In this document: positions 1,788 to 41,303 of the stretch, in pieces | Position numbering within the stretch: the stretch's first letter is position 1 | How the letters are laid out: every line of letters begins with the position of its first letter | Sequence record: NZ_CP085772.1 | Reading direction: 5' to 3' (one strand) | Source of the DNA: a plasmid | Length of the DNA stretch: 51,836 bases | The notes under the pieces: model-generated | What the model was told of the DNA's origin: nothing | Databases searched by the model: none | What the model saw: the letters and a program-made list of their open reading frames with translations, nothing else | Translations under genes and position numbers: made by a program

Positions 1788-1796
1788 TTTCGCCAT

Positions 1797-1863
1797 GGCG
1801 ATTTCACATCTAACTTATTGTAATTAGGCAGTTTAGGCTGAGAATTTCAAGGTGAAATCGCCA
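1797..1863. repeat. Inverted repeat (12-bp arms tggcgatttcac / gtgaaatcgcca) downstream of sopB; no 43-bp sopC-type array present
   Basis: Perfect 12-bp arms about 43 bp apart, read directly. Confidence 0.4.
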
Positions 1864-1868
1864 AAGTT

Positions 1869-3140: not shown

Positions 3141-3571
3141 CAGTACATCTCCCTCGGGCGGTGGATGATATGCGTGACGACGCCAAAGATATCAAGCTCG
3201 TCGGGGTCAGGATAAATCGGCGACCAGGAGGCATTCATGGGCTGCAGCGTCAGTCGAGGCGTCAGCAGAAGCCGTTTAACCGTAAACTCCCCCTGTACGC
3301 TGGCGACAACGATATCGCCGTGCCGCGGCTTTTCAGCACTGTCCACAACCAGCAGATCGCCATTGTACAGACTACCGTCCGCCATGCTGTCTCCGCTGGC
3401 ACGCAGGTAGTACGTCGCGCTCGGATGCCGTATGCAGTAATCATGGAGATCCAGATCGGACTCGACATAGTCAGCGGCAGGGCTGGGAAAACCGCAGCTG
3501 GCCAGATCGGCAAACAATGGATGGGCCTGTGGCGGGTGTTCTTTCCCGGTGCTGAAAAGCTGTAGCTTCAT
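3140..3571 (-). CDS. umuD: UmuD (LexA-like self-cleaving SOS protein)
   Basis: Start MKLQLF preceded by AGGAGG. Contains the S24 peptidase fold (GDSM..K). Overlaps umuC by 1 nt. The longer six-frame ORF (to 3952) is an artefactual upstream extension. Confidence 0.85.
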
Positions 3572-3596
3572 CTTTCCTCCTGACACTCTAATTTTA

Positions 3597-3612
3597 CTGG
3601 TTATGTATACAG
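3597..3612. promoter_or_regulatory. LexA (SOS) box-like palindrome CTGGTTATGTATACAG upstream of umuD
   Basis: CTG-N10-CAG palindrome. Other strand reads CTGTATACATAACCAG, one mismatch from CTGT-N8-ACAG. Lies ~25 bp upstream of the umuD ATG. Confidence 0.55.
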
Positions 3613-3613
3613 T

Positions 3614-5560
3614 GTGCGCCGGGAGACCGGTAGAGATCAAGGGGTGAAAGTCCCCGACCATTGAAGGACCAGCAATCCACAAGGTCCCCGAGTCATGCGT
3701 TGCATACCGCGAGGTATGGGGCGAAGCGTTGACAGGGGTGTTGACAGGCCAGCCATTGAGCCACGAAATGTATATTAAATTACCGGGTGCCGACGTTGTA
3801 CTGTTAACGGAAGGCAACATCATAGGGTGCGATACTGCGAGTGCCACATGGACCCGGCGGGGTCTGAGACCCTGGCATGTCAATACGATCTCTACGCGGG
3901 AACCGGGAGATCTCCCCTCTGACCATCTGCCAGTGTCGGAGATGGCCCGCACCGGGAAGACGAGGAGTCATAGCCGGTGATGTACGGAGAGGAGAAGTCG
4001 GACTCGCTCATAGTAGCGGCGAAGCAGGCGAACAACCCGAAAGGAGCGGAGTCAGTGGAGCGAAGGAGCGGGGCCAAGGGGAACGCGGAACAGCCACACA
4101 TGCGCCGGACACAGAGCCGGGAAAGCATGTCACAGAGGCTGTCACGCGTGCGGGAAGCTGCGAAGCAGCGGAAGAAAGAACGGTTTACAGCATTGTTCCA
4201 CCTGCTGACAGTCGAAGCACTGGAAGCCGCATTCCTCTCCCTGAGCAGGAAAGCGGCCGCCGGAGTGGATGGCATCAGGTGGATGGACTACGCCGGAAAC
4301 ATGAAGAACAACATAACAGATCTGCACCGGAGGCTACATCAGGGCAGCTACAGGGCGCAGCCCGGCAGGCGTCACTACATCCCAAAAGCGGATGGAAAAC
4401 AACGCCCGCTCGGCATCGCCTCGCTGGAGGACAAGATCGTCCAGTATGCGCTGGTGAAAATCCTGAACGCAGTCTATGAAAACGACTTTATGGGGTTCTC
4501 ATACGGGTTCAGACCCGGGCGAAGCCAGCACGATGCACTGGACGCACTGGCCACAGGGCTGGTACGCACTAACGTAAACTGGGTACTGGATGCCGACATC
4601 AGTCAGTTCTTTGACAGGGTGAGCCACGAATGGCTGATCAGGTTCACAGAGCATCGGATCGGCGACCGGAGGGTAATCAGGCTCATACGTAAGTGGCTCA
4701 CAGCCGGGACGTCGGAGGAGGGTCAATGGCGAGCAACGGAGGAAGGCACCCCACAGGGTGCGGTCATCTCACCGCTGCTGGCAAACATATACCTCCACTA
4801 CGTCTTCGATCTGTGGGCGCATCAGTGGCGACGTCGCTATGCCACAGGCAATGTGGTAATGGTCAGATACGCCGATGACATCGTCATCGGGTTCGACAAA
4901 CGATACGATGCCCGGCGCTTCCGTATAGCCATGCAGCGCAGACTGAGGGAGTTCGGACTCACGGTTCACCCGGAGAAAACCCGTCTGATGGAGTTCGGCC
5001 GCTTCGCTGCCGAAAACCGTGCCATCAGGGGAAAAGGCAAACCAGAAACGTTCAACTTCCTCGGGTTCACGCACATCAGCGGGAAAGATCGCAACGGCAG
5101 GTTCATGCTGATACGAAAGACCCGCCGGGATCGGATGACGGCAACTCTGAAAGCCATCAAAGACGGTCTGCGAAGGCGCTGGCATTACTCAATCCCCGAA
5201 CAGGGAAAATGGCTCAGGAGAGTGGTTCAGGGATACCTGAACTATCACTCGGTACCGGGCAACTTCCCCACCATGCAGAAGTTCAGGACACACGTAACAA
5301 ACCTCTGGCGCCGGGCGCTCAGGCGCAGGAGCCAGAAGGATGATACGACCTGGACGAAAGCAAACAAACTGGCAGCCGCATGGCTACCAAGGGTTCGGGT
5401 TCTTCATCCATGGCCTGTGGAGCGGTTCACCGCCAGACACCCGAGGCAGGAGCCCGGTGCGTAAATCGCGCACGCCGGGATCTGTGCGGGGGGTATCCGG
5501 TAACGGGTATCCCTACCGCGACATATTTAACAGCGTGACGATAATCCAGATCGCCTGCCG
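3614..5560 (+). mobile_element. Bacterial group II intron (retroelement), complete or nearly complete; 3' boundary approximate
   Basis: Starts GTGCG (or GTGTG at 3612). The 5' ribozyme domains span about 360 nt. The RT/maturase ORF lies in domain IV. About 96 nt remain after the ORF stop for domains V-VI before IS1 begins. Confidence 0.75.
3977..5464 (+). CDS. ltrA: Group II intron-encoded reverse transcriptase/maturase (no recognisable C-terminal HNH endonuclease domain)
   Basis: RT motifs present, including YADD (VMVRYADDIVIGF) and the X/maturase region. 495 aa. Confidence 0.9.
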   Translation: MMYGEEKSDSLIVAAKQANNPKGAESVERRSGAKGNAEQPHMRRTQSRESMSQRLSRVREAAKQRKKERFTALFHLLTVEALEAAFLSLSRKAAAGVDGIRWMDYAGNMKNNITDLHRRLHQGSYRAQPGRRHYIPKADGKQRPLGIASLEDKIVQYALVKILNAVYENDFMGFSYGFRPGRSQHDALDALATGLVRTNVNWVLDADISQFFDRVSHEWLIRFTEHRIGDRRVIRLIRKWLTAGTSEEGQWRATEEGTPQGAVISPLLANIYLHYVFDLWAHQWRRRYATGNVVMVRYADDIVIGFDKRYDARRFRIAMQRRLREFGLTVHPEKTRLMEFGRFAAENRAIRGKGKPETFNFLGFTHISGKDRNGRFMLIRKTRRDRMTATLKAIKDGLRRRWHYSIPEQGKWLRRVVQGYLNYHSVPGNFPTMQKFRTHVTNLWRRALRRRSQKDDTTWTKANKLAAAWLPRVRVLHPWPVERFTARHPRQEPGA

Positions 5561-5747
5561 GGTAATGGTGCCAACTTACTGATTTAGTGTACGATGGTGT
5601 TTTTGAGGTGCTCCCGTGGCTTCCATCTCCATCAGTTGTCCCTCCTGCTCAGCTACTGAAGGCGTGGTGCGTAACGGTAAAAGTACTGCCGGACATCAGC
5701 GCTATCTCTGCTCTCACTGCCGTAAAACATGGCAGCTACAGTTCACT
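5561..5747 (+). mobile_element. IS1 fragment (IRL plus insA 5' end), truncated by IS903B insertion
   Basis: ggtaatggtgccaacttactgatttagtgtacgatggtg... matches the IS1 left end and the start of insA. Homology stops at the IS903 IR. Confidence 0.8.
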
Positions 5748-5756
5748 GGTAATGGG

Positions 5757-6812
5757 GCTTTGTTGAATAAATCAGATTTCGGGTAAGTCTCCCCCGTAGC
5801 GGGTTGTGTTTTCAGGCAATACGCACGCTTTCAGGCATACCTGCTTTCGTCATTTTGTTCAGCGCTCGTACCAGGGCCATAGCCTCCGCAACCTGACCAT
5901 CGTAGTCACGCAGCGTCAGTGAACCCCCGAACAGCTGTTTTACCCGGTACATCGCCGTTTCCGCTATCGAGCGACGGTTGTAATCTGTTGTCCATTTCCA
6001 CCGCGCATTACTCCCGGTCAGCCGCTGATTAGCCACTGCACGGTTACGGTCTGCATATTCACCGGGCCAGTAACCCGCACCTTTTCGGGGTGGGCTAAGC
6101 GCGCTGATTTTCTTACGCCGCAGTTCATCGTGACAGAGCCGGGTGTCGTAAGCGCCGTCTGCCGATGCTGCCCTGATTTTTCTGTGAGTCTGCCGGATAA
6201 GACCCGGGAAGGCTTCTGAGTCCGTCACATTGTTCAGCGACAGGTCTGCACAGATGATTTCATGTGTTTTGCTGTCAACTGCCAGATGCAACTTTCGCCA
6301 TATACGACGGCGTTCCTGGCCATGCTTTTTGACTTTCCACTCGCCTTCACCGAAGACCTTCAGCCCGGTGGAATCAATCACCAGATGCGCGATTTCACCC
6401 CGGGTGAACGTTTTGAAACTGACATTAACCGACTTTGCGCGCCTGCTGACACTGGTGTAATCCGGGCAGCGCAACGGAACATTCATCAGTGTAAAAATGG
6501 AATCAATAAAGCCCTGCGCAGCGCGCAGGGTCAGCCTGAACACGCGTTTAATGACCAGAACGGTGGTGATGGCGAGATCAGAATAGCGCTGAGGTCTTCC
6601 CCGTGATGAAGGCGTTGCCGACTCATACCAGGCCTGAATAGCTTCATCATCCAGCCAGAAAGTTATGGAGCCACGGTTGATGAGGGCTTTATTGTAGGTG
6701 GGCCAGTTGGTGATTTTGAACTTTTGCTTTGCCACGGAATGGTCTGTGTTGTCGGGAGGATGCGTGATCTGATCCTTCAACTCAGCAAAAGTTCGATTTA
6801 TTCAACAAAGCC
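5757..6812 (-). mobile_element. IS903B (IS5 family) copy 1
   Basis: 18-bp terminal IRs GGCTTTGTTGAATAAATC at both ends. Length about 1056 bp. Confidence 0.9.
5812..6780 (-). CDS. tnpA: IS903B transposase
   Basis: 322 aa, N-terminus MKDQITHPPDNTDHSVAKQKF, DDE motif present. Confidence 0.9.
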   Translation of the reverse strand: MKDQITHPPDNTDHSVAKQKFKITNWPTYNKALINRGSITFWLDDEAIQAWYESATPSSRGRPQRYSDLAITTVLVIKRVFRLTLRAAQGFIDSIFTLMNVPLRCPDYTSVSRRAKSVNVSFKTFTRGEIAHLVIDSTGLKVFGEGEWKVKKHGQERRRIWRKLHLAVDSKTHEIICADLSLNNVTDSEAFPGLIRQTHRKIRAASADGAYDTRLCHDELRRKKISALSPPRKGAGYWPGEYADRNRAVANQRLTGSNARWKWTTDYNRRSIAETAMYRVKQLFGGSLTLRDYDGQVAEAMALVRALNKMTKAGMPESVRIA

Positions 6813-6841
6813 CATTAGATCTGCTTTTGCCAAAAAAACGG

Positions 6842-7279
6842 CTAGTTTTTTCTGGGTTTACCCAAACCAAAGGCACCGGCATTCACTATAAACGAGGCCT
6901 TTCTGATCGGCGTATCGATATCAAATATGGGGTTTTCAGCACGCCTTCTTTCAAAGTACTTATTTCTCTCCGATTCATTTTTAAAAGCGCTACCTGTCCT
7001 TGCAATCCTCTCCTGAATAAGCATCTTTTCATGCTCAGCCTTTTTGGTTGAGTTGGCCTTAGCGAGATTCTTTTCAAGGGATTTCGTATGCTTTTTTATA
7101 TGCTTTCTCAACCTAGCTTTATGGCCAAATGAGAGTTTACATATCGGACAAGTGAATAATTCTTCCATAAGCTTCATGAGTGTAAGGGGAAGGTTATATT
7201 TACCATAGCATTCCTTGTCCGAACTGCCATGCGATGGTCCACCGGGGCAATGAGGCAAAGCCGTTGTCTGTGGAAGCAC
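6842..7279 (-). CDS. Small basic protein with a canonical C2H2 zinc-finger motif (F-x-C-x2-C-x3-F-x5-L-x2-H-x3-H); start codon uncertain
   Basis: FTCPICKLSFGHKARLRKHIKKH followed by a K/R/E-rich tail. A near-identical copy lies at 15128..15604. Confidence 0.5.
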   Translation of the reverse strand: MLPQTTALPHCPGGPSHGSSDKECYGKYNLPLTLMKLMEELFTCPICKLSFGHKARLRKHIKKHTKSLEKNLAKANSTKKAEHEKMLIQERIARTGSAFKNESERNKYFERRRAENPIFDIDTPIRKASFIVNAGAFGLGKPRKN

Positions 7280-7349
7280 TACGCGGCATGATGAGCGTCG
7301 TCAGTTGCACACCGGCAAAGACGTGAAACACTTTTAACCGGAGCCAGTC

Positions 7350-7628
7350 ATGCGCGTTGCCGAAAGCATCATCCTCGATGCCCTCACTCGCGGAGGATGC
7401 ATCAAAACCTTTTACCGCATATCCTCACGGCAGGCTGCTGAATCGGCCACGCGGATACCTGAGGGGTATATTCTGGAGTCGCCCGGCGAGCGGGAAGATA
7501 TTGTGCTCAGCCATGCGGACTTTCATGCACTGGAGAAGCAGCTGGAGCAGAAGGAAACCTGGGAGCAGGTGGTCGGTGTGACCTGTTTTGGTGGGGCAAC
7601 CTGGCAGCTGAGAGCCGGGTCCGTGTGA
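7350..7628 (+). CDS. Hypothetical 92-aa protein (duplicated at 15636..15917)
   Basis: ORF with start MRVAESII. Conserved in both copies of the module. Confidence 0.4.
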   Translation: MRVAESIILDALTRGGCIKTFYRISSRQAAESATRIPEGYILESPGEREDIVLSHADFHALEKQLEQKETWEQVVGVTCFGGATWQLRAGSV

Positions 7629-7890
7629 TGAGTGGCTGAGGTGCCGAAATAATTCTTTTATTTCAGCAGTGGCATTTCTGCAGTCCACGACTACAGTCTT
7701 CTCACCGGATGCATTGTGACTGTCCCACACTCCGGGGATTTGCTCCCTTTGACGAACCACAATTGTGTCCGGCCAGCCTTTCACGCTGGCTTTTTTTCGC
7801 ACAACTCTGTTCAGACTGAGTCTGAATGGTCATCTCCCTGCCCTGCCCGTTTACGCTGATGGCCAGACAGGGAGCGCCAGGAAAGAATGG

Positions 7891-8844
7891 TTAGTGGCGG
7901 ATCTGCGCCAGGTCGTCTTCCGTCAGGCCGGTCATTTTCATAACGGTATTGCGGTCAATGCCGTTATGCAGCATGGTACGGGCAATTTTCAGAGTGGCCT
8001 GACGCTCACCTTCTGAACGGCCCTTTTCAATACCCCGTTGTTCACCGAGCTGGATGCCCTGCTCAATCCCCTTCTGGATACCCTTCTGCTCAAGCTGTTG
8101 TGCGATGGTCATGAGTGCGTCTCCGTGTTGCGGCACACGCTGTGCCAGTTCGCGTACAAAGGCTTCGGCGTCAGCTGTCTCGCCTGCCTGGAGTATATAG
8201 TGTACCAGCGATATGACCTGGGATGAAGACAGATAGCCGGCCAGCAAAATGGGCGCCAGCCGGTCAACCAGTTCAGCGAGGTCGCGCTGGTGAATATGTT
8301 TCTGCAGTAAGGTCAGAGCGGCCATACTGCGGTGGCCGGCGATGTCATCATCCGGAATAACGGTCACATCAACCAGCGGGAAAGCGCCGCTGTAGAGTGT
8401 GCCTGCCAGCGCCGGGTCGTCAAACTCATCCAGCCAGCGGGTGGAATACGGATACGGGCTGCGTTTACCGGTATAGAACAGGACCGGTATCACCAGGGGC
8501 AGCTTCTTATGGCCCGCTTCCAGATGGCGCTGCATGGCGGCTACCGCGTAACGTATCAGGCGAAACGCCATGTGCCTGTCAGGCGACGACTGGTGCTCAA
8601 TGAGCACGTGAACGTAGCCGTCACCACCGGTGGTTTTCAGGCTGTAGAGGACGTCGCTGAAATACTGGCGGAGGTCATCCTCAACGAACGAGCCGGATTC
8701 CAGTTTCAGCGTGCTGAGGTCGCAGATGGCCTGCAGCTCAGCGGGCAAATGCAACTTCATAAAATCCCGGGCAATATCCGGCTGCGTCAGGAACTGCCTG
8801 AACGTGGCATCGTGGGGTGTGGGGGTGCTGTTTTTCTTCATCAT
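7891..8844 (-). CDS. rpn: Rpn-family recombination-promoting nuclease (YhgA-like PD-(D/E)XK transposase_31)
   Basis: Start MMKKNSTPTPHDATFRQFL. C-terminal IQKGIEQGIQLGEQRGIEKG repeat typical of the RpnA-E family. Confidence 0.75.
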   Translation of the reverse strand: MMKKNSTPTPHDATFRQFLTQPDIARDFMKLHLPAELQAICDLSTLKLESGSFVEDDLRQYFSDVLYSLKTTGGDGYVHVLIEHQSSPDRHMAFRLIRYAVAAMQRHLEAGHKKLPLVIPVLFYTGKRSPYPYSTRWLDEFDDPALAGTLYSGAFPLVDVTVIPDDDIAGHRSMAALTLLQKHIHQRDLAELVDRLAPILLAGYLSSSQVISLVHYILQAGETADAEAFVRELAQRVPQHGDALMTIAQQLEQKGIQKGIEQGIQLGEQRGIEKGRSEGERQATLKIARTMLHNGIDRNTVMKMTGLTEDDLAQIRH

Positions 8845-9013
8845 CAGCCCTGGCTCTGAAAAATGACCCGGGTATGCTATCACAGGCAGGAGCAGCACAT
8901 AATGGCCAGTCAGATGATGATGTATTTCTTTCCCGTAAGGCCGCTCAGTCTATATTCTTGCATATCAATCATTCAGGATGCCGGACAACTCACGTTTGCG
9001 AACAGAGAGATCG

Positions 9014-9634
9014 TTATTTGTTAGCGCTGGAGCAGACCCGAATTACTGTCATTTTAGAAACGCCCGCCAGGCGAGCTGTTTCTCGCAGCGATTTTCCATT
9101 GACCAGGCGCAGAGTGCGTATCAGTTCATGTTTCTGCGCATCGGCCACCCTGCCCCGGTATTTTCCTTCAGCTTTCGCCTTACTGATACCCTCTGACTGT
9201 CGACGTCGACGGTCTTCGTAATCTTTTCGGGCAATAGCGGCCAGCATATCCAGCATCATGCCATTTACGGCCTTCAGCATGCTTCGGGTAAAGTCATCAC
9301 TTACTGTGCTGGATAGCGCCAGATGGCTGGTCGGTAGATCAAGACTGACGATGGCCAGCTGCTTGTCTGTAATTTGCTTTCTGAGTGTCTCCCAGCCTGC
9401 ATCATCCAGGCGAGTGAGCCTGTCGACCTGTTCAATGAGAATCACATCACCAGGTTCCGCATCACCAAGAAGCCTGATCAGTTCAGGAAGATTCATTGTC
9501 GTACCGGAGACATTATCGATATACCAGCCAGCAATACGGTGTCCATGTTGGTTTGCAAACGCCTTCAGTGCATTTTTTGCCCGGCTGGCATCCTGTTCTG
9601 AAGTGGATGCCCGGAGGTAACCAAAAACGAACAT
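9014..9634 (-). CDS. Serine recombinase (resolvase/invertase family)
   Basis: MFVFGYLRASTSEQ catalytic-Ser N-terminus. C-terminal HTH. Confidence 0.8.
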   Translation of the reverse strand: MFVFGYLRASTSEQDASRAKNALKAFANQHGHRIAGWYIDNVSGTTMNLPELIRLLGDAEPGDVILIEQVDRLTRLDDAGWETLRKQITDKQLAIVSLDLPTSHLALSSTVSDDFTRSMLKAVNGMMLDMLAAIARKDYEDRRRRQSEGISKAKAEGKYRGRVADAQKHELIRTLRLVNGKSLRETARLAGVSKMTVIRVCSSANK

Positions 9635-16712: not shown

Positions 16713-16920
16713 TTAGCGTGTGCTCCGGTGGTTTGCACATGCGCAAATTTTTCAGCCCAAAGGAGGCTAATCATCACGGGGATTACGTTCAAATCCCCTG
16801 CGCCCTCTTGCTGCCCATTCAGCATTGAGTACTGAATCGCCACGGGTTTAACAGACACCTCAGAGTCATTTAAGATGGCTTAAAGAGAGGTGCCCATGAG
16901 CGGTAAGCGTTATCCCGAAG

Positions 16921-17740
16921 GGCACTGTTGCAAAGTTAGCGATGAGGCAGCCTTTTGTCTTATTCAAAGGCCTTACATTTCAAAAACTCTGCTTACCAGG
17001 CGCATTTCGCCCAGGGGATCACCATAATAAAATGCTGAGGCCTGGCCTTTGCGTAGTGCACGCATCACCTCAATACCTTTGATGGTGGCGTAAGCCGTCT
17101 TCATGGATTTAAATCCCAGCGTGGCGCCGATTATCCGTTTCAGTTTGCCATGATCGCATTCAATCACGTTGTTCCGGTACTTAATCTGTCGGTGTTCAAC
17201 GTCAGACGGGCACCGGCCTTCGCGTTTGAGCAGAGCAAGCGCGCGACCATAGGCGGGCGCTTTATCCGTGTTGATGAATCGCGGGATCTGCCACTTCTTC
17301 ACGTTGTTGAGGATTTTACCCAGAAACCGGTATGCAGCTTTGCTGTTACGACGGGAGGAGAGATAAAAATCGACAGTGCGGCCCCGGCTGTCGACGGCCC
17401 GGTACAGATACGCCCAGCGGCCATTGACCTTCACGTAGGTTTCATCCATGTGCCACGGGCAAAGATCGGAAGGGTTACGCCAGTACCAGCGCAGCCGTTT
17501 TTCCATTTCAGGCGCATAACGCTGAACCCAGCGGTAAATCGTGGAGTGATCGACATTCACTCCGCGTTCAGCCAGCATCTCCTGCAGCTCACGGTAACTG
17601 ATGCCGTATTTGCAGTACCAGCGTACGGCCCACAGAATGATGTCACGCTGAAAATGCCGGCCTTTGAATGGGTTCATGTGCAGCTCCATCAGCAAAAGGG
17701 GATGATAAGTTTATCACCACCGACTATTTGCAACAGTGCC
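16921..17740 (-). mobile_element. IS26 copy A (820 bp)
   Basis: 14-bp IRs GGCACTGTTGCAAA at both ends. Confidence 0.95.
16973..17677 (-). CDS. tnpA: IS26 transposase Tnp26
   Basis: MNPFKGRHFQRDIILWAVRWY... 234 aa from the MNPF start. Confidence 0.95.
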   Translation of the reverse strand: MNPFKGRHFQRDIILWAVRWYCKYGISYRELQEMLAERGVNVDHSTIYRWVQRYAPEMEKRLRWYWRNPSDLCPWHMDETYVKVNGRWAYLYRAVDSRGRTVDFYLSSRRNSKAAYRFLGKILNNVKKWQIPRFINTDKAPAYGRALALLKREGRCPSDVEHRQIKYRNNVIECDHGKLKRIIGATLGFKSMKTAYATIKGIEVMRALRKGQASAFYYGDPLGEMRLVSRVFEM

Positions 17741-19208: not shown

Positions 19209-19336
19209 ATGAAATATGATTTTGATGAGTACGTAAGCAGAGAGAAAACAGACAGTCTCACCGTGGACGGCTGGCGGGAATACCTGTTTTCGGGACAGTC
19301 CGAATTTGCAATGCGGTATCCGGCAGAAGGGCTAAT
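19209..19336 (+). pseudogene. malY/patB-like PLP-dependent C-S lyase, N-terminal fragment (interrupted by transposon)
   Basis: MKYDFDEYVSREKTDSLTVDGW resembles the MalY/PatB N-terminus. The frame continues across the insertion into 24815..25910. Confidence 0.7.
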
Positions 19337-19535
19337 TGTAACGGCTCGCAATCGAAATCCTTCGGGCTCGCAATCAGCGCAATTTTCGGCTCAGATTAAG
19401 TGACAATGAAAATCCTCACAGGCTCACATTAAGTGATAATGAGCTCGCGTTTATCTTTTCCGGCTCGCCATTCATTGCCTCGGGCTCACAATAAATGCAA
19501 ATGAAAATTCTCCCATTGCGTCACCAGTAGATAAT

Positions 19536-20195
19536 TTATTGCTTCTTATGCTGGCGAAACAGGGCTGTCAAGACCCTTTCAATCATCTCTTTCACCACCT
19601 CAGATTTCGGACGCTCCAGCGCCGTCAACGCCAACCCTTTTTCCAGTGTGATAATAAAACAGGCAAACGCTTCAGGAGCAAGGTAAGCAGGCAGCTCTCC
19701 ACATTGCTGCGCCTCTCGCGCTTCGTTTTCCAGCCACTGGGTAAATGCCTGCCTTTCATCGCGTAATTGTGCGGCAAGGCCTCCTTCATCAATCTGGAAA
19801 GCCAGTGCGGAAAAGGTCATGGCGCACCCCAACGGTTTACCGTCACAACTGAACAACGTAAAGGCGTCATGAAGAAAATGACGCATCCGTTGTTCGAAAG
19901 TTTGTGTTTGATCCTGCAGACACTGTTCCAGCCCCCCCAACCAGTGCTGGCGGTAATACATAAGCGCCGCCGCATACATCCCCTCTTTGTTACCGAAGGC
20001 CAGATACAGCGATGGAGGTTTCATTCCGGTTACATGGGTCAGGTCTGCTATCGAGGTTGAGGCATATCCCTTTTGCGCAAAAACCTGAAATAACGCCTCC
20101 GCCAGCTTATCTGATGAGATGAGTTTTGGCCTGCCAGTTTTTTTCTTTTCAATCATGGAGATAGCCTTATCTTTTAACTTAATCATTATGTTCAT
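19536..20195 (-). CDS. TetR-family transcriptional regulator (transposon cargo)
   Basis: N-terminal HTH GRPKLISSDKLAEALFQVFAQKGY. Confidence 0.7.
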   Translation of the reverse strand: MNIMIKLKDKAISMIEKKKTGRPKLISSDKLAEALFQVFAQKGYASTSIADLTHVTGMKPPSLYLAFGNKEGMYAAALMYYRQHWLGGLEQCLQDQTQTFEQRMRHFLHDAFTLFSCDGKPLGCAMTFSALAFQIDEGGLAAQLRDERQAFTQWLENEAREAQQCGELPAYLAPEAFACFIITLEKGLALTALERPKSEVVKEMIERVLTALFRQHKKQ

Positions 20196-20296
20196 AGTAT
20201 CATGTTTTATAGTTATCGCTAAAAAACAATTGCATCACTGAAATATTTACCTTATATTTTTTATTGATCACTACAAAATACGAACGGGATAGGCGT

Positions 20297-20563
20297 ATGA
20301 GAAAGTTCATTATTGCTGCAATATTGAGTCTGAGCATCCTGCCCGTGCTGACACAGGCATCAACCGAAATCAACAATTCTCACCAGTGCGAATTGCTTCG
20401 CCTTGGGAGCATCAGTGTTTCAGGTGGCACGATTGATGAGTTGACTAGCAAGCTTGCAGCAAAAGCAGAAAAATCAGGCGCCGATTATTTCCGCATCACT
20501 TATTTAAATACCAATGCCCATGGATATGCCACTGCAACGCTATACGACAATGCAGGCGCTTAG
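20297..20563 (+). CDS. DUF1471 (YdgH/BhsA/McbA-family) small periplasmic stress protein (cargo)
   Basis: Signal peptide plus GADYFRIT motif typical of the family. Confidence 0.6.
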   Translation: MRKFIIAAILSLSILPVLTQASTEINNSHQCELLRLGSISVSGGTIDELTSKLAAKAEKSGADYFRITYLNTNAHGYATATLYDNAGA

Positions 20564-20655
20564 CTGCAACATAAATTTGACAAGTTAATCTGTTACATAA
20601 GGGATGTGTGGCTACAGAACCCTTATGGCTTTTTACATACGCAAAGGAAAATATT

Positions 20656-21132
20656 ATGAAAACAAACATTAAAGCGCTGTTTTTTGCTTCGCACCTGGCT
20701 TTATTTGGCGTGGGTTTCGGTGTCGGTATCTATGTACTGCCTATCCTCACCGCTGAGAAAAACTCCAGTGCTGATGAAATTAAGGAAGTTAAAAATAATG
20801 CCCGCTACACGGGGGCATTTTTTAAAAACCAAAAAGGGAGTAATGCTGTTCACTGGGTTGATGGAAAGCTGTATGTCTCCGATCAAGAAATCGCATTTGA
20901 AGGTAGCATTGCTCCAGGTCCGGATTACAAGATCTATCTGACCAAAACCCAGGCTGATGATCGTAATTCATTTTTAAAAATAAAAGAAGAATCATTATAT
21001 ATAGGTGATTTGAAAAACTACGGCAACTTCAAAAAGAACCTGCCAAATGGTGTCAATATTGATGAATACACCACTGTGCAAATCTGGTGCGAAAAATTCG
21101 AGCAATTTATTGGTTCAGCCCAATACAGGTAG
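20656..21132 (+). CDS. Hypothetical N-terminal-TM-anchored protein, possibly DM13-domain (cargo)
   Basis: RBS AAAGGAAA. N-terminal TM helix. C-terminal domain of unknown function. Confidence 0.4.
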   Translation: MKTNIKALFFASHLALFGVGFGVGIYVLPILTAEKNSSADEIKEVKNNARYTGAFFKNQKGSNAVHWVDGKLYVSDQEIAFEGSIAPGPDYKIYLTKTQADDRNSFLKIKEESLYIGDLKNYGNFKKNLPNGVNIDEYTTVQIWCEKFEQFIGSAQYR

Positions 21133-21329
21133 TGGGGTAAAACACGGGTTACTGGAGTTATTTTCGCAAACAGATCATGACGCTCTCTGTGTGACTGGCG
21201 CAATGATCACCGGATACGCTCGCAATTAAGGCTATCGGACCTTAAGACTCTGTCAAAATAGATAAACTGGAATATCCATTTACCCATATGGGGTCGTCTG
21301 GCGTACTGCAATTCAGTCAGCAAATCTCA

Positions 21330-21470
21330 TGGAGTAAAATCGTATTTTATGGGTGCACCCAAAGCATACAGTTTGGTGAGACAGTTTTTCTGTCTCATTT
21401 GGATTGTTTTTGTCTCATCTGCATGTTACGTTTTCCTCATCTAGAGTCTAACGAGACATTTTTCATAACA
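21330..21470. promoter_or_regulatory. Putative res site upstream of tnpR (TGTCTCA repeats including inverted pair tgagacag-ttttt-ctgtctca)
   Basis: Three TGTCTCA-type motifs within about 120 bp. Confidence 0.45.
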
Positions 21471-22031
21471 ATGGCTTTTTACGGTTATGCCCGGGTTTCA
21501 ACCAACGACCAGGATCTGGATTTGCAAATACAGACGCTTCGCGCCGCTGGCTGCGAAATCATCCGTTCAGAAAAAGCGAGCGGGACCAGCCGCGATGGAC
21601 GAACTGAGCTGCAACTGTTGCTGGATTTTCTGCGTAAGGGAGACACGCTGATTGTCACGCGAGTCGATCGCCTGGCCCGTAGCATTAAAGATTTGCAGGA
21701 TATCGTGTATGCCCTGAATCAGCAGGGCATTACCCTCAAGGCAACAGAACAACCTGTGGATACGCGCACCGCAGCAGGTAAGGCGTTTCTGGATATGCTG
21801 GGTGTCTTCGCTGAGTTTGAAACCAACCTGCGCCGTGAACGCCAGTTGGAAGGTATCGCTGCCGCAAAAGCCCGCGGGGTTTATCAGGGGCGCAAACCGC
21901 GCATCGATCCTGTTGAGGTCCGTCGGTTGTACGTTGAAGAGAAAATGGGCGCAACGGCGATTTCTCGCCAACTGGGGATCGGTCGAGCCTCGGTCTATCG
22001 TGTGCTGGACCGCGATGAGCAGCCGGCGTAA
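21471..22031 (+). CDS. tnpR: Serine resolvase TnpR/BinL-like
   Basis: MAFYGYARVSTNDQ catalytic N-terminus. 186 aa. Confidence 0.85.
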   Translation: MAFYGYARVSTNDQDLDLQIQTLRAAGCEIIRSEKASGTSRDGRTELQLLLDFLRKGDTLIVTRVDRLARSIKDLQDIVYALNQQGITLKATEQPVDTRTAAGKAFLDMLGVFAEFETNLRRERQLEGIAAAKARGVYQGRKPRIDPVEVRRLYVEEKMGATAISRQLGIGRASVYRVLDRDEQPA

Positions 22032-23676
22032 GGCCATTCCAACCGATTCTTTGTTGCAACTGCGACAACGGCTTGACCGTCTGCCACCAAAAAGTCCGGA
22101 ACGCGCGGCCCAGATCACCGCGATGGCGCTACTCTATTGCATTTCCGTCACCACCGTCTATCGTACACTCCGTGCCTTCCAGAAACCTCACATTGCACAC
22201 CGGCGTGATCACGGGAAACCCCGGATACTGCCGCCGTCCGAACTCGAATATTATTGTGAACTGATCGCTGCATTGAAATTACGTACCACCAATAAAGCCG
22301 GTCGTCATCTGTCCACGACGCGTGCCATTCAGTTGCTCGAAGAACATGGTGTGGAAACGACTCAGGGGCTGGTTAAACTTCCAAAGGGGTTGTTGCGCAG
22401 GCCAACGGTTAACCGCTATTTGTCCCTGTTCCGACTCGATCACTCACGTCTGTTACGGGAGCCACCGGCAGCGCGGTTCCAGGCTGAGTGCAGTAATGAC
22501 TGCTGGCAGTTCGATATGTCGCCCTCTGATCTCAAATATATCGAATGTCCTGAGTGGATTGATCCGGCCCGTGGACAACCTACCCTGATGTTATTCAGCG
22601 TGGTGGACGATCGCAGCGGGGTTAATTACCAGGAATACCGCTGTGTGTATGGCGAAGATGCGGAGTCTGCCTTGCGTTTTCTGTTTAATGCCATGGCGCC
22701 TAAAAGTCATCCGGAGATGTCTCTCCAGGGGCGACCGAAAATGCTGTACCTCGATAATGGCCCGGTGGCGAAAAGCCATGTCTTCCAGAATGTGATGCAG
22801 GCGCTGCAGATTGACTGGCAGACACATATGCCGGCAGGCAAGGATGGCACCCGCACCACAGCCCGGTCAAAAGGCAAGGTTGAGCGCCCGTTCCGTTCCG
22901 TCAAAGAAGCCCACGAAACGCTGTATCATTTTCATAAGCCGGAGACTGAACAGCAGGCGAATGAATGGCTCTGGAACTACCTGATACGCTATAACGCACA
23001 ACGACATCGCAGCGAAAAGCATTCCCGTGAGGAAGATTGGCTGATGCATTTGCCACCAAAGGGAGTGCAGGACATGTGCACCTGGGAACAGTACTGTCGC
23101 TTTGCCCGGGAGCCGGAGTCTCGCAAGGTGGGTATCGATGCCCGCATAACGATTGACGGGACAGCTTACGAAGTCGAACCCGACATGGCGGGTGAAACTG
23201 TTATCCTGCTGTGGGGCCTCTTTGATGACGAAATGTTCGTGGAGTTTGACGGTGAAAAGTGGGGGCCTTATTTTCCTGTTTCCGGCCCGATACCTCTGCA
23301 CCGCTATCGGGCATTCAAACGCGGAAAAGCAGCGGTGCGGGCAGACCGTATCCAGTCATTGGCTCGGCAACTGAACTTACCTATCAGCGCCCTGTCCGGT
23401 TGTGACCTCAAACTGGTGGCCGATAGCGTTCAGAGCACGCGGGTGTTGCCACATCAACCCTTCGAGTCCACAGCGTTTGAATACTGTTTTCCTACCCCGG
23501 TGGCAGCGAAGCTGGCTATTGCGGCTGATCTGGCCACACCGCTGGCGAAATTATCGGATGAAGACAAGGCGTTTATCGACCAAGTACTGACAGACACGCT
23601 GATCCGCAGTGAGGTATTTGCCCGGGTCAGGGAGTATTTCCGCAACACCCAATCAGGAGAGGATCATGCGGGTTGA
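22015..23676 (+). CDS. tniA: DDE transposase, TniA/TnsB/Tn552 p480-like (rve core)
   Basis: 553 aa. D,D(35)E integrase core region around DCWQFD....LYLDNGP....E. Confidence 0.8.
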   Translation: MSSRRKAIPTDSLLQLRQRLDRLPPKSPERAAQITAMALLYCISVTTVYRTLRAFQKPHIAHRRDHGKPRILPPSELEYYCELIAALKLRTTNKAGRHLSTTRAIQLLEEHGVETTQGLVKLPKGLLRRPTVNRYLSLFRLDHSRLLREPPAARFQAECSNDCWQFDMSPSDLKYIECPEWIDPARGQPTLMLFSVVDDRSGVNYQEYRCVYGEDAESALRFLFNAMAPKSHPEMSLQGRPKMLYLDNGPVAKSHVFQNVMQALQIDWQTHMPAGKDGTRTTARSKGKVERPFRSVKEAHETLYHFHKPETEQQANEWLWNYLIRYNAQRHRSEKHSREEDWLMHLPPKGVQDMCTWEQYCRFAREPESRKVGIDARITIDGTAYEVEPDMAGETVILLWGLFDDEMFVEFDGEKWGPYFPVSGPIPLHRYRAFKRGKAAVRADRIQSLARQLNLPISALSGCDLKLVADSVQSTRVLPHQPFESTAFEYCFPTPVAAKLAIAADLATPLAKLSDEDKAFIDQVLTDTLIRSEVFARVREYFRNTQSGEDHAG

Positions 23677-24634
23677 GGTAATGGAACATTATGGACTGGC
23701 GCAACCAATCGATCAGGCCGGTTACTATGAGACGGCTCACCATAAGCAGCTTATCAAGGATATCCGCGGTGCTATCCACGAAGGCCGGTTAATTGCCGTT
23801 TGTGGTGTGGTTGGCAGCGACAAGACAGTCACTCTGCGGCGTTTGCAGCAGCGTCTCAGGGAGGAAAATAAAATTACCGTAGCTCGCTCCCTGTCGATTG
23901 AAAAGCACAATATTAAACTGGCCACGCTCATCAACGCGCTCTTTTACGATTTGACGCAGGATAAACAGGTTCAGATCCCCAAACAGGGCGAACGACGCGA
24001 GCGTGAGTTACAGGAACTGGTCAAAAAAGGAAAGCGGCCAGTGGCATTGTTTGTTGATGAAGCGCATGACCTGAACGGGCATACACTGATCGGACTCAAA
24101 AGGCTGATGGAAGTTGTGGAGGACGGTGGCGGCCGGCTGTCGGTTGTTCTGGCCGGTCACCCCAAACTGCGCAATGACCTGCGACGCCCGACTATGGAGG
24201 AGATCGGTTATCGCACGGATATCTTTACGCTGGATGGGATCACCGGTAGCCAACGGGAATATATTCAGTGGCTACTGAAAACCAGTATGGGGAAAGGCAA
24301 GCCGGAAGACATTCTGACCGCCGACGCCCTCGACCTGCTGGCGATGAAACTACGTACCCCACTTCAGGTTCAACTACATCTGACGCTGGCCCTGGAGGCC
24401 GGTTATCAGACGGGAGAAAAGCCGATAACCGCCGCCCTGGTTGAATCGGTACTTTCCCGCCAGCTTGACGATTTGGAGCCGACATTAACGCGTCATGGTT
24501 ATCGACTGAAAGACATGGTGGAGCAGTTTGATGCCAAACCGGCAGAAATCAGGGCCATGTTCAACCATCAGCTCGACCCTGCTCGAACAGCAGAACTGCG
24601 GGACAGGATGCTGGCGGTGGGGCTCCCGATATGA
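23666..24634 (+). CDS. tniB: AAA+ ATP-binding transposition protein TniB-like
   Basis: Walker A GVVGSDKT, Walker B LFVDEAH. Stop abuts the right IR. Confidence 0.8.
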   Translation: MRVEVMEHYGLAQPIDQAGYYETAHHKQLIKDIRGAIHEGRLIAVCGVVGSDKTVTLRRLQQRLREENKITVARSLSIEKHNIKLATLINALFYDLTQDKQVQIPKQGERRERELQELVKKGKRPVALFVDEAHDLNGHTLIGLKRLMEVVEDGGGRLSVVLAGHPKLRNDLRRPTMEEIGYRTDIFTLDGITGSQREYIQWLLKTSMGKGKPEDILTADALDLLAMKLRTPLQVQLHLTLALEAGYQTGEKPITAALVESVLSRQLDDLEPTLTRHGYRLKDMVEQFDAKPAEIRAMFNHQLDPARTAELRDRMLAVGLPI

Positions 24635-24814
24635 CGAATTTCATTTGCAGTTATTGTGAGCCGAAGGAAATGGAATGCGAGCCGAAAAAGATAAACGCGA
24701 GCTCATTGTCACTTAATGTGAGCCCGGGAGGATTTTCATTGTCACTTAATCTGAGCCGAAAATTGCGCTGATTGCGAGCCCGGGGGATTTCGATTGCGAG
24801 CCGTTACAGCTAAT

Positions 24815-25910
24815 CAACCTCTGGGTTGCTGACATGGCTTTTGCCACACCAGAGCCGATTCTTCAGGCCATCAGAGACCGTCTGGATAGAAAAATACTCG
24901 GCTACACTAAAATCTACGACGAAGAATACTATGAGATCTTTGGCAGCTGGTGTGAGCGACAATATGGTCACCGTTTCAAAACGGAAGACATTGTGCTGTC
25001 TCCGGGCATTATTCCCGCGCTGAACCGTCTCGTCCCGCTTCTGACCGACATGGATGACAGTATTCTTATTATGACGCCTTCATATGGCCCGTTTAAAAAG
25101 GCGGGTGAATACAGTCAGCGTCGCGTGGTGTACTCGGCGTTAAAAAAATCAGCAGGCGGCTGGGAACCTGACTGGGAAGACTTTGCACGCAAAGCCAGTC
25201 AGGCCGATTTACGTGTGAAAATTCTTTTCCTGTGTAATCCGCATAACCCGACCGGACGAGTCTGGCGGCCTGATGAACTTAAGCGGATTATTGAAATTTG
25301 CCTGGCCAATGACATCTGGGTGATATCTGACGAAATTCACTGCGACCTGTCCCGAAGCGGTATCGGTCATACACCGGCCGCCTCTCTTTTCCCTGATTCT
25401 ACACGCATTATTACCTGCATGTCCTCGAGTAAAACATTCAATCTGGCCGGGAATTTGTTGGCAAATATCATTATTCCGGATCCCGGTGTCAGAAGCGAGT
25501 GGCGTCTCAGACACGACGAGTTCATCTCTCCACTGAGCCTGGCAGCAAACAAAGCGGCGTGGAGTGAATGTGATGACTGGCTTGTCCATCTGAGGGAATA
25601 TATTGACGGCAATTTCCAGTACCTGCACGACTATCTCAAAAGCTATTTACCCGAAACCAGGTTCTCGATCCCCGAAGGGACATATCTGGCCTGGATAGAT
25701 ATTAGCCGCTACCTGCCCGACACCGCAGGTGAGGATTTATCGCTGTATTTTGCCCGGGAGTCAGGGGTCCTTCTTGAAGGGGGCTTGCTGTTTGTCGACA
25801 ATGGGGACGGATATATCCGGTTAAATCTGGCCTGCCCACGGAGTATGCTGACAGCAGGGATGAAAAGAATTTCACAGGTACTGCGGATACCGGCTCCTCA
25901 TCGTGTATAA
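24815..25910 (+). pseudogene. malY/patB-like C-S lyase, C-terminal ~365 codons (continuation of 19209..19336)
   Basis: DMAFATPEPILQAIRDRL aligns with MalY DMDFATAPCIIEAL. Class I/II aminotransferase fold. Confidence 0.75.
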
Positions 25911-38897: not shown

Positions 38898-40483
38898 CTA
38901 AGACTGTTTTTTGTACAAAGCGGTATCGACTGTACGTAATGAGCGGTATTTTCCGGATCCCAGCTTAAGATTATTACGCCAGACGTAATCTCCACTCAGA
39001 TTGATATGTTCCCAGCCCAGGGGAGAAAGATGAGAGACCAGTTGCTCATTTATCGGGATACCCTTTCGTTTTAGTGACTCAATAGCTCTTTCTATATATA
39101 CCGTGTTCCACAACGTGATCGCTGCTGTCAGTAATGTCAGCCCGCTGGCGCGATAACTCTGATTCTCCAGCCCACGATCCCTTATTTCACCCAGACGGTG
39201 CAAAAAGACCGCTCGCGCAAGGGCATTACGGGCCTCACCCTTATTCAGCCCCGCCTGCACGCGTCGGCGCAGACCGGGATCACGGAACCAGTCCAGCATA
39301 AATAGTGTCCGTTCGATGCGGCCAATCTCTCTCAGCGCTTTGGCAAGTCCATTCTGTTTTGGGTAACTGGCTAACTTTTTCATCATCAGTGATGCGGTGA
39401 CTGTCCCCTGCTTAATCGAGGTTGCCAGGCGCAATACCTCATCCCAGTGCGACTCAATGTCTTTGATATTTAGGCAGGTTGTTGATATGACAGACTGAAG
39501 CCCCGGATAGCGCTCGGCCTTTCCATGAATAAACAGCCGCTTGTCATGAAGATCACGGATCCTTGGCGCAAAAGCGAATCCCAGCAGGTGCATCAGGGCG
39601 AAAACATGTTCAGTGAAGCCTGCGGTATCGGTGTAATGCTCGGTAATTTCCAGATCGCTTTCATGGTACAGCAGGCCATCAAGCACGTGGGTTGAGTCGC
39701 GCACCCGGCTGATCACTTTGGCGTAGAACGGGCTGTATTGGTCTGAGATATGCGTATAAATCTGCACGCCCGGCTCCTGACCATATTTAAGATTGACCTG
39801 ACCGGCATAACGTCCGTGACTGCCTACCCGAAAGTTCTGCCCGTCTGACGACGATGTTGTCCCGTCGCCCCAGAATGCGGCCAGAGGCCGCTCTTTCTGT
39901 GCGTTGACCAGCTCGGCCAGTGCCGCTGAATAAGTTTCATCCCTGATGTACCATGCCTGAATACCTTCGAGTGACGATCTTGTGGCCCCAGGGCAGGATT
40001 CCGCCATTTTTGTCAGCCCAAGGTTGATGCCGTCAGCCAGAATGGTGGTCAGCAACAGTCTTCCGTCTTTTGGTCTGACGTTATTATTTTTGAGGTGCGC
40101 GAAGTGACGCGTAAATCCCGTCCAGCTATCAACTTCTTCCAGTATCTCCGTAATTTTCGGATGGGGAAGCATGCCATAGACCAAATCTGCAAAGGGCGAA
40201 ACACCTGAAGGAACGCTGTTCTCCAGTGGAGTGATTTTTACGCCTTTATCTGAGATATCTACATCGGGCAAATCACCGGCAAGCGCCATCGCGTTAACTT
40301 CTTCCAGCCGAGATGCAAGAAGAGTCATACGGGCCTGAAGGTATGCCTGGCTATCGGTCTGAACGGCCAACTGTAACTGGTCATTATGTCGGGATTTCTC
40401 AAACTCAGCAGTCGGGATGAGATAATCATCAAAATTTTTGTAGCGGCGCGATCCTTTTACCCAGATATCACCGGAACGTAATG
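38898..40483 (-). pseudogene. tnpA: Tn3-family transposase TnpA, C-terminal ~528 codons; 5' part removed by IS26 copy C
   Basis: DDE region of a Tn3-family TnpA. The ORF runs into the IS26 IR. Confidence 0.8.
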
Positions 40484-41303
40484 GGCACTGTTGCAAAGTT
40501 AGCGATGAGGCAGCCTTTTGTCTTATTCAAAGGCCTTACATTTCAAAAACTCTGCTTACCAGGCGCATTTCGCCCAGGGGATCACCATAATAAAATGCTG
40601 AGGCCTGGCCTTTGCGTAGTGCACGCATCACCTCAATACCTTTGATGGTGGCGTAAGCCGTCTTCATGGATTTAAATCCCAGCGTGGCGCCGATTATCCG
40701 TTTCAGTTTGCCATGATCGCATTCAATCACGTTGTTCCGGTACTTAATCTGTCGGTGTTCAACGTCAGACGGGCACCGGCCTTCGCGTTTGAGCAGAGCA
40801 AGCGCGCGACCATAGGCGGGCGCTTTATCCGTGTTGATGAATCGCGGGATCTGCCACTTCTTCACGTTGTTGAGGATTTTACCCAGAAACCGGTATGCAG
40901 CTTTGCTGTTACGACGGGAGGAGAGATAAAAATCGACAGTGCGGCCCCGGCTGTCGACGGCCCGGTACAGATACGCCCAGCGGCCATTGACCTTCACGTA
41001 GGTTTCATCCATGTGCCACGGGCAAAGATCGGAAGGGTTACGCCAGTACCAGCGCAGCCGTTTTTCCATTTCAGGCGCATAACGCTGAACCCAGCGGTAA
41101 ATCGTGGAGTGATCGACATTCACTCCGCGTTCAGCCAGCATCTCCTGCAGCTCACGGTAACTGATGCCGTATTTGCAGTACCAGCGTACGGCCCACAGAA
41201 TGATGTCACGCTGAAAATGCCGGCCTTTGAATGGGTTCATGTGCAGCTCCATCAGCAAAAGGGGATGATAAGTTTATCACCACCGACTATTTGCAACAGT
41301 GCC
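40484..41303 (-). mobile_element. IS26 copy C
   Basis: IRs GGCACTGTTGCAAA. No TSD (flanks acgtaatg and tgcttttc). Confidence 0.95.
40536..41240 (-). CDS. tnpA: IS26 transposase
   Basis: Identical protein. Confidence 0.95.
   Translation of the reverse strand: MNPFKGRHFQRDIILWAVRWYCKYGISYRELQEMLAERGVNVDHSTIYRWVQRYAPEMEKRLRWYWRNPSDLCPWHMDETYVKVNGRWAYLYRAVDSRGRTVDFYLSSRRNSKAAYRFLGKILNNVKKWQIPRFINTDKAPAYGRALALLKREGRCPSDVEHRQIKYRNNVIECDHGKLKRIIGATLGFKSMKTAYATIKGIEVMRALRKGQASAFYYGDPLGEMRLVSRVFEM

Follow-up and report, generated by a model that had tools for sequence, protein, structure and literature searches.

A probable Mu-like unit transposon with seven-site ends and its own serine resolvase interrupts a plasmid patB/malY-like gene

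The plasmid stretch NZ_CP085772.1 (51,836 nt; 'the window' denotes this whole stretch, and positions are window coordinates unless a locus is named) carries a complete unit transposon of ~5.5 kb at 19337–24808, delimited by a repeat search and an open reading frame (ORF) map. Between a left and a right terminal inverted repeat (IRL and IRR) the element comprises, in order, cargo (TetR, DUF1471, DM13), res, the resolvase gene tnpR, the transposase gene tnpA and a gene for an AAA+ ATPase. It is likely that the element belongs to a Proteobacterial Mu-like family that moves by replicative transposition followed by resolution at res, and that the copy in the window is crippled by replacement of Gly52 of the ATPase by Asp (G52D). 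The core consists of a transposase of the Mu/Tn7/IS21 class and an AAA+ regulator, both proteins forming a lineage of their own, joined to a resolvase as in Tn552 and Tn5053. The family is large and highly conserved, with a three-gene core, ends of ~165–210 nt (seven sites where aligned) and a 6-bp TA-centred target. The features of the element and of its target gene are as follows, gene coordinates being mapped from the RefSeq annotation of the identical element in pKPN-b0b.

19209–19336, plus strand: 5′ part of a patB/malY-like C-S lyase (class I/II aminotransferase) gene, ending with the left 6-bp target-site duplication (TSD)
19331–19336, no strand: left 6-bp TSD GCTAAT, direct repeat
19337–19506, plus strand: IRL, tip TGTAAC, seven putative transposase-binding sites
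21337–21460, no strand: predicted res site, three inverted-repeat units upstream of tnpR
21471–22031, plus strand: tnpR, serine resolvase of 186 aa (Pfam Resolvase, E 1.4e-39, and HTH_7)
22015–23676, plus strand: tnpA, DDE transposase of 553 aa, candidate catalytic residues D167, D247 and E290
23666–24634, plus strand: AAA+ ATPase of 322 aa, ExeA/GspA and putative MuB type (Pfam AAA_22, E 1e-13)
23819–23821, plus strand: Walker A codon 52, GAC (Asp) where the family has GGC (Gly), giving GVVGSDKT for GVVGSGKT
24639–24808, minus strand: IRR, same seven-site layout counted from the tip at 24808
24809–24814, no strand: right 6-bp TSD GCTAAT, direct repeat
24815–25910, plus strand: 3′ part of the patB/malY-like gene (Pfam Aminotran_1_2, E 1.7e-37)

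The arms of the inverted repeat are 170 nt long and 92% complementary, and form the sole outstanding inverted repeat of the region; the initial annotation, made from the sequence alone, had placed reverse-complementary ends of ~175 bp at 19337–19508 and 24635–24808, which is essentially the same. The tips are TGTAAC...GTTACA, with GCTAAT followed by TGTAACGGCTCGCAATCG... on the left and ...CGATTGCGAGCCGTTACA followed by GCTAAT on the right. Exactly two copies of the 24-nt tip TGTAACGGCTCGCAATCGAAATCC are present in the window, one per end and on opposite strands, with 0 occurrences expected from shuffles. Fusion of 19209–19336 to 24815–25910, which removes the element and one copy of the GCTAAT repeat, yields a single 400-aa ORF (junction ...RYPAEGLINLWVADMAFATPEP...); 24834–25910 is carried in public records as a 358-aa aminotransferase. 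The reconstructed empty site (800 bp) matches ~290 plasmid records end to end, at 100% identity among the matches listed, and the intact gene is labelled aminotransferase or cystathionine beta-lyase PatB in these plasmids. Both the 6-bp direct repeat and the restoration of one MalY/PatB-type frame, as first described, are therefore borne out against an intact homologue. Because of the empty site, the TSD and the conservation of the ends on homologous elements (kept in 29 delineated relatives), this is a clean, recent and simple insertion of a unit transposon into a plasmid patB/malY-like gene, as had been proposed.

Seven sites with the core GCTC[A/G][C/G] are found in each end, at offsets 7, 29, 52, 85, 106, 126 and 147 from the tip; the spacing is roughly 21–22 bp, plus one 33-bp step. 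Four sites in IRL are of a short type (GGCTCGCAAT-like, at 19343, 19365, 19442 and 19462) and three are of a long, 22-bp type (GGCTCAcATTAAgTGAcAATGA, at 19388, 19421 and 19483). This seven-site architecture is kept in the aligned ends of the 29 related elements, which agrees with the earlier description of TGT-starting, multi-site ends full of sub-repeats. The core pentamer varies between elements (GGCTC, GACCT or GGACT), and within one element it changes at all sites together, as expected of protein-binding sites co-evolving with their transposase.

Copies 100% identical to the element are present in at least 68 plasmids of Klebsiella, Enterobacter, Raoultella and Leclercia; most occupy the same site, a consequence of plasmid inheritance. 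The same element, with 3 single nucleotide polymorphisms, occupies a different site in Enterobacter hormaechei pBD-50-Eh_2 (IncHI2), where its 6-bp TSD is CTTAAC. In a Serratia fonticola plasmid, a 90%-identical element has an S-type pyocin and immunity gene in place of the TetR module, with TSD CCTAAT. Salmonella virulence plasmids carry a 4.6-kb relative (locus L003, 7869–12486, in S. Typhimurium pSTY1-1808; similar matches occur in nearly 400 Salmonella plasmid records) with ~77.5% DNA identity in the module from res to the right end, 222-nt inverted repeats and a carbonic anhydrase as the only cargo. No TSD flanks this relative (CCTAGT on the left, AATAGC on the right); its right end adjoins an IS630-family element, beyond which spvR follows after ~1.6 kb. 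The Salmonella 4.6-kb element is also present in a Serratia marcescens plasmid (L004), and a copy on an E. hormaechei chromosome (L011) matches it in size and end type. A 5.4-kb relative with TSD GCTACC lies in p1448A-B of Pseudomonas savastanoi pv. phaseolicola 1448A (L006, 8014–13450). Its cargo includes a YafQ/DinJ toxin–antitoxin pair, and the long-type repeat occurs in one additional tandem copy at its left end. A mobile-element re-annotation of the 1448A genome counted 1.4 kb of IS DNA in p1448A-B, thus the 5.4-kb element was not recognized there (PMC3189936). MITEPsy2 of P. syringae was considered as a relative of these ends and rejected; it is Tn3-family related and unrelated to them.

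A survey of one genome per species gave 373 stretches encoding a relative of the transposase. Eighty loci were fetched, and the 29 relatives, from plasmids and genomes of many Proteobacteria, were delineated by script at 3.67–12.1 kb. All 29 have TGTA...TACA tips and inverted repeats of 165–210 nt. The smallest (~3.7 kb) consist of IRL, res-tnpR, tnpA, the ATPase gene and IRR and nothing else, and the cargo of the larger ones is located without exception between IRL and res. In 68/71 loci the start of the transposase gene is abutted by a serine resolvase gene, and in 64/66 its end by an ATPase gene. The protein family numbers 1,695 clusters at 50% identity (E up to 1e-3), or 253 with E up to 1e-30. 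Cargo in the relatives includes bacteriocin and immunity genes, carbonic anhydrase, toxin–antitoxin pairs, an ETX/MTX2-like toxin, ketoacyl synthase with ACP, TetR with an MFS pump, a hybrid histidine kinase, MerR with CDF and LspA, a radical SAM cluster, an Hcp-lysozyme fusion and a NicO transporter.

Perfect 6-bp TSDs flank 15 of the 29 delineated elements. T-A occupies positions 3–4 in 44/44 distinct flank hexamers, which have the palindromic consensus (C/G)(C/A)TAG(G/C), and no wider target motif around the hexamer was seen among the 15 TSD-flanked sites. The family is marked by DDE-type insertion with a 6-bp stagger, multi-site ends, a nearly invariably linked gene trio and cargo beside res. 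Neither the TA-centred target of the family, nor its wide distribution, nor the G52D change had been noticed in the initial annotation.

For the transposase, Pfam gives a weak, generic rve match (E 0.002) and no PF09299 (Mu-transpos_C), and a single-sequence search against PDB sequences gave nothing significant. PHROG 310, a transposase family of transposable phages, matches at E 5.8e-33, and tblastn finds transposase A of the B3-like Pseudomonas phages B3, PM105 and Ps60 (24–27% identity over ~350 aa, E 3e-13). The family profile against PDB gives marginal matches to Tn7/CAST and IS21 proteins (E 0.004–0.01). A first AF2 model, from a shallow alignment of 72–100% identity, was too poor to use (pLDDT 53.6), which was cured by adding diverged family members; the resulting model (pLDDT 75, pTM 0.53) shows D167/D247/E290 within an RNase H core, alongside a helix-turn-helix (HTH) domain, a winged HTH, a beta-barrel and a C-terminal region of helices. 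The C-terminal tail of the transposase has a conserved ...GEDHAG. Foldseek with this model finds TnsB (E 1e-15), IstA (E 6e-15) and MuA (E 2.8e-7 over 498 columns). By hhalign the family profile matches Tn552 p480 at 84.7% (E 6.6e-6, 322 columns), TniA proteins at 8–40% (Tn402 TniA at 8%) and the Tn6049 transposase at 7.9%; BLASTP to p480 gives 27% identity over 85 aa. The initial annotation had named a TniA/p480-type DDE transposase: the DDE assignment stands, p480 is probably a remote homologue, and the TniA type is not supported, given the lack of Mu-transpos_C and the 8% match to Tn402 TniA.

The best NCBIfam match of the transposase is IS481 (NF033577, E 1.2e-18, profile positions 12–272 of 284), and the label given by PGAP is 'IS481 family transposase'. 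Together with TGT-starting ends and a 6-bp TSD consensus close to the IS481-family target NCTAGN (PMC6794481), this raises the possibility of an enlarged IS481-family element, i.e. a transporter IS whose transposase acts alone, with the ATPase and resolvase as passengers or plasmid-maintenance genes. Yet the match scores 67.7 bits, far under the curated cutoff of 224 bits, and the 553-aa protein is ~200 aa longer, with a beta-barrel and C-terminal region as in TnsB, IstA and MuA. IS481 elements are ~1 kb with a single transposase gene; here the ends alone are 170 nt, and the minimal elements of 3.7 kb, free of cargo, still hold three overlapping and nearly always linked genes; ATPase and resolvase appear to be obligatory partners. 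Additionally, conservation of the ATPase exceeds that of the transposase. We regard this explanation as rather improbable, because of the near-constant gene linkage and the domain architecture.

The ATPase gene shares its first 11 nt with tnpA, and its stop codon adjoins IRR. Pfam matches are AAA_22 and AAA_16 only, with no TniB (PF05621), and PHROG 296 ('DNA transposition protein') matches at E 3.7e-16. With the family profile, MuB (8xvb) is matched at E 1e-4, and the match spans the entire AAA core (residues 19–170). By hhalign the ATPase matches GspA of Tn6049 at 95.9% (E 5.6e-9; 30% pairwise identity over 151 aa), two TniB proteins at 0.5–0.6% and Tn552 p271 at 2%. No match to p271 was found by BLASTP and none in a phage collection by tblastn, and a single-sequence search against PDB sequences gave nothing significant. 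Of the 'TniB-type AAA+ ATPase' first proposed, the AAA+ ATPase is upheld and the TniB type is not.

These results bear on a second alternative, that the element is a member of the Tn5053/Tn402 ('res-hunter') family whose TniQ has been lost and whose genes have been rearranged. It has in its favour the combination of a DDE transposase, an AAA+ ATPase and a serine resolvase with res, the resolvase being 37% identical to Tn402 TniR. However, Pfam finds neither Mu-transpos_C nor TniB nor TniQ in the element, while the same tool gives clear scores for true TniA, TniB and TniQ proteins (e.g. PF09299 at 1.6e-10 for the TniA at locus L031), and the hhalign values are 0.5% for TniB and 8% for Tn402 TniA. 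The TSD is 6 rather than 5 bp and the inverted repeats are 170 rather than ~25 nt; all 15 targets that were mapped are hexamers with central TA, located in ordinary DNA and not in res sites, and minimal family members have three genes only. That the element derives from Tn5053/Tn402 is thus very improbable. The absence of a TniQ/TnsD-type protein had been correctly noted: the element has six genes, all assigned, and no Pfam TniQ match.

Tn552 is the better of the two comparisons in the earlier label 'Tn552/Tn5053-like', although the likeness is remote, and the Tn5053 part of the label is to be dropped. On pMW2, Tn552 has the same order of cargo (blaZ/blaR1-blaI), res-resolvase (binL), DDE transposase (p480) and ATPase (p271); therefore the order tnpR, transposase, ATPase, which had been called unusual, is not odd. 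The resolvase is 37% identical to BinL and the transposase is probably a remote homologue of p480. Tn552 has long terminal inverted repeats (116 bp) and a 6–7-bp TSD, and often lands in res sites. In contrast, the ATPase of the window has no detectable relation to p271, the ends are 170 nt with seven sites, the targets are TA-centred and, where mapped, not res sites, and the hosts are Proteobacteria.

The element also resembles the transposition module (A and B proteins) of Mu-type transposable phages, especially the B3-like phages of Pseudomonas. Their ends are likewise multi-site with TG...CA tips, the transposase, with HTH domains, RNase H core and beta-barrel, matches PHROG 310 and is homologous to phage transposase A, and the ATPase matches PHROG 296 and, weakly, MuB. 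The element differs in having no phage genes between its ends, a family size of 3.7–12 kb, a serine resolvase with res, a TSD of 6 bp with central TA, and an ATPase without a tblastn match in the phage collection. Compared with Tn7/CAST (TnsB-TnsC) and IS21 (IstA-IstB), it has no TnsA, TnsD/E or TniQ and does have a resolvase, and its ATPase is not IstB- or TnsC-like by sequence. The closest named element found is Tn6049 of Cupriavidus metallidurans CH34, also present in pHS87a, and the likeness is confined to the ATPase type: a homologous GspA/ExeA-type ATPase lies beside the transposase. Among named elements, only Tn6049 was found to combine an 'IS481-family' transposase and such an ATPase (PMC2864759, PMC4739549); it is 3.5 kb long, with 12-bp inverted repeats and a 4-bp duplication (PMC4739549). 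It is without a resolvase (from the pHS87a gene list) and the transposases are barely alignable.

Upstream of tnpR, which overlaps tnpA by 17 nt, the palindrome-rich region at 21337–21460 is predicted to be a three-subsite res. The candidate subsites are as follows.

21341–21370: candidate subsite 1, imperfect palindrome CGTATTTTA..GGGTGCACCC..AAGCATACA
21377–21397: candidate subsite 2, TGAGACAG-N5-CTGTCTCA
21411 and 21453: candidate subsite 3, the pair TGTCTC (21411) / GAGACA (21453)

The region is conserved in all elements of the same resolvase class, and homology to the Salmonella element begins at 21325. A serine resolvase with res had been proposed from the start, and the Pfam match and the predicted site both agree with it. 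Three unrelated-looking resolvase/res classes occur in the family, with resolvases 76–100%, ~42% and ~38% identical to the tnpR product of the window; by locus count they are B (36), A (28) and C (4; loci L009–L088). The class B res has the perfect palindrome GTCCAACAAAC...GTTTGTTGGAC. The transposase and ATPase backbones under differing classes are conserved at 62–95% identity, therefore the res-tnpR module has been repeatedly swapped.

In a relative from P. gessardii (L031), a Tn5053/Tn402-like mercury transposon (TniA, TniB, TniQ and MerA; 25-bp inverted repeats; flanks GCAAC/GCAAT) is nested at 893–9339, ~100 bp upstream of tnpR and inside the res-like region, which is typical 'res-hunter' behaviour. 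The Tn5053/Tn402 family reportedly targets functional res sites, so this nesting lends indirect support to the region being a working res.

Element position 1936, at which truncated copies end, was also considered as a res crossover and rejected: the junction is an IS26 end, pointing to IS26-mediated deletion and not to res recombination. The IS26 end GGCACTGTTGCAAA cuts the element at this position (window 21272; junction 5936/5937 in locus L089) in other plasmids, e.g. BB1501_2 and Escherichia coli MDR_56, and on this ground IS26 is eroding copies of the transposon. A diverged copy of ~77% identity in Raoultella ornithinolytica pNUITM-VR1_2 (L091, 9322–11944) is cut by IS26 just upstream of the transposase gene and has thereby lost the resolvase and left end. 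Several IS26 copies are present in the window itself, at 16918–17740, from 30811 (~820 bp) and at 40480–41303.

By analogy with Mu and Tn7, several transposase protomers would bind the seven sites of each end and pair the ends. The ATP-bound ATPase would coat or mark target DNA and activate strand transfer, as MuB, TnsC and IstB do, and may also give target immunity. Strand transfer would take place, with a 6-bp stagger, at a (C/G)NTAN(G/C) hexamer. A TnsA-like second nuclease is not encoded, so only the 3′ ends would be cut and transposition would be replicative; replication would then give a cointegrate, to be resolved by the serine resolvase at res. The res site may double as the exchange point for cargo and resolvase modules.

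The competing possibility is a non-replicative route, either cut-and-paste or copy-out, with the resolvase serving mainly plasmid multimers or module exchange. Clean TSDs, present in half of the elements, are the product of any DDE route; many copies are on plasmids, where multimer resolution is useful, and the three resolvase classes make the resolvase an exchangeable module. Against this, the minimal 3.7-kb elements encode no TnsA-like or other second nuclease, and the resolvase is retained even in chromosomal copies. Likewise, the 14 of 29 elements that lack a TSD are nevertheless flanked by a TA-centred hexamer at either end, which fits intramolecular replicative events. We consider the non-replicative route unlikely, on the same grounds of near-constant gene linkage and domain architecture as for the IS481 explanation.

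Several points weigh against replicative transposition by a Mu-like core and a crippled copy in the window. Transposition, cointegrates and their resolution are steps that we infer, and transposition could be conservative if the flanks are processed by an activity that cannot be recognized from sequence. Resolving plasmid multimers could instead be the role of the resolvase, and the proposed subsite structure of res comes from a reading of palindromes. The match of the ATPase to MuB is weak and the AF2 model of the transposase is of moderate quality. The predicted effect of G52D draws on general knowledge of P-loops. Finally, nearly half of the delineated elements (14/29) have no TSD; these are consistent with either intramolecular replicative events or recombination between copies, and prove neither.

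Position 23820, A in the window and G in the same-site copy of pMS7884B, is the sole difference between the two over 6,072 bp, and the copy at the other site in pBD-50-Eh_2 also has G. GVVGSGKT, with Gly52, is found in four of four aligned relatives, and G..G.GKT in 118/120 clusters of ATPase homologues, with Asp in 0/120. Only five plasmid records match the window without a mismatch, and the remaining full-length ones (among the 30 of 68 listed) are one mismatch lower, so the Asp52 form appears to be a minor sub-lineage. Replacing the invariant P-loop glycine by an acidic residue would be expected to prevent nucleotide binding, and G52D is probably inactivating. If the ATPase is needed as MuB, TnsC and IstB are, the window copy could therefore not move alone; it is probably non-autonomous, and immobile unless a wild-type copy supplies the ATPase.

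The cargo of the window copy consists of three genes. All three had been named in the initial annotation, the third as possibly DM13-like, and Pfam bears out each assignment.

19536–20195, minus strand: TetR/AcrR-family regulator (Pfam TetR_N, E 1.4e-9, and TetR_C_13; RefSeq start at 20186)
20297–20563, plus strand: DUF1471 (YdgH/BhsA/YhcN-like) small periplasmic stress-family protein (Pfam PF07338, E 1e-13)
20656–21132, plus strand: DM13-domain protein with an N-terminal hydrophobic segment (Pfam DM13, E 9.9e-20)

NCBIfam matches of the DUF1471 protein to BhsA/YhcN are under cutoff. The interrupted patB-like gene is part of a plasmid redox/electrophile-stress gene cluster (to the right of the insertion, window 26096 to ~30800; L001, 12760–16969) encoding an SDR, a DsbA-family protein, an alkene reductase, a thioredoxin, a carboxymuconolactone decarboxylase-family protein and a TetR; MsrA is encoded close by in a related plasmid. 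The DUF1471 and DM13 cargo of the transposon may also be stress-related.

In public records the core genes are labelled 'IS481 family transposase', 'ExeA family protein' and 'recombinase family protein', and no published name for the family was found in open-access literature. There is about an even chance that a specialist database already holds a member. The mcr-9 cassette has been described as mcr-9-wbuC-qseC-qseB-exeA followed by truncated IS481 and IS26 (PMC7825325). Its exeA and IS481 remnant could be a decayed family member, with mcr-9 as former cargo; the one candidate locus examined (H81) is not an mcr-9 context.

For the window, the practical meaning is that a plasmid patB-like gene has been knocked out by a transposon copy that is probably stuck through one P-loop mutation. 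On a wider scale, the elements may constitute a major and so far unclassified Proteobacterial family that combines a TnsB/IstA-fold transposase, a MuB/ExeA-type ATPase, an exchangeable resolvase and an IS481-like TA target, a proposal for and against which we hold our confidence evenly divided. In such a family the spread of cargo would extend to virulence, bacteriocin, metal-resistance, toxin–antitoxin and other genes, including on the Salmonella virulence plasmid beside spv, and annotators would have been labelling its members 'IS481 family transposase / ExeA family protein'. Should the family prove to be unclassified, annotation is overlooking a common carrier of accessory genes, one that is found on plasmids of clinical and agricultural importance in Klebsiella, Enterobacter, Salmonella and Pseudomonas syringae. 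The TGTA(A/G)C tips, the seven-site ends and the 6-bp NNTANN duplication now allow its boundaries to be called, which would permit better analyses of cargo and plasmid evolution. Additionally, a very small natural system of three genes in 3.7 kb, with a strict dinucleotide-centred target and no dedicated selector, would offer a useful comparison for Mu, Tn7/CAST and IS21.

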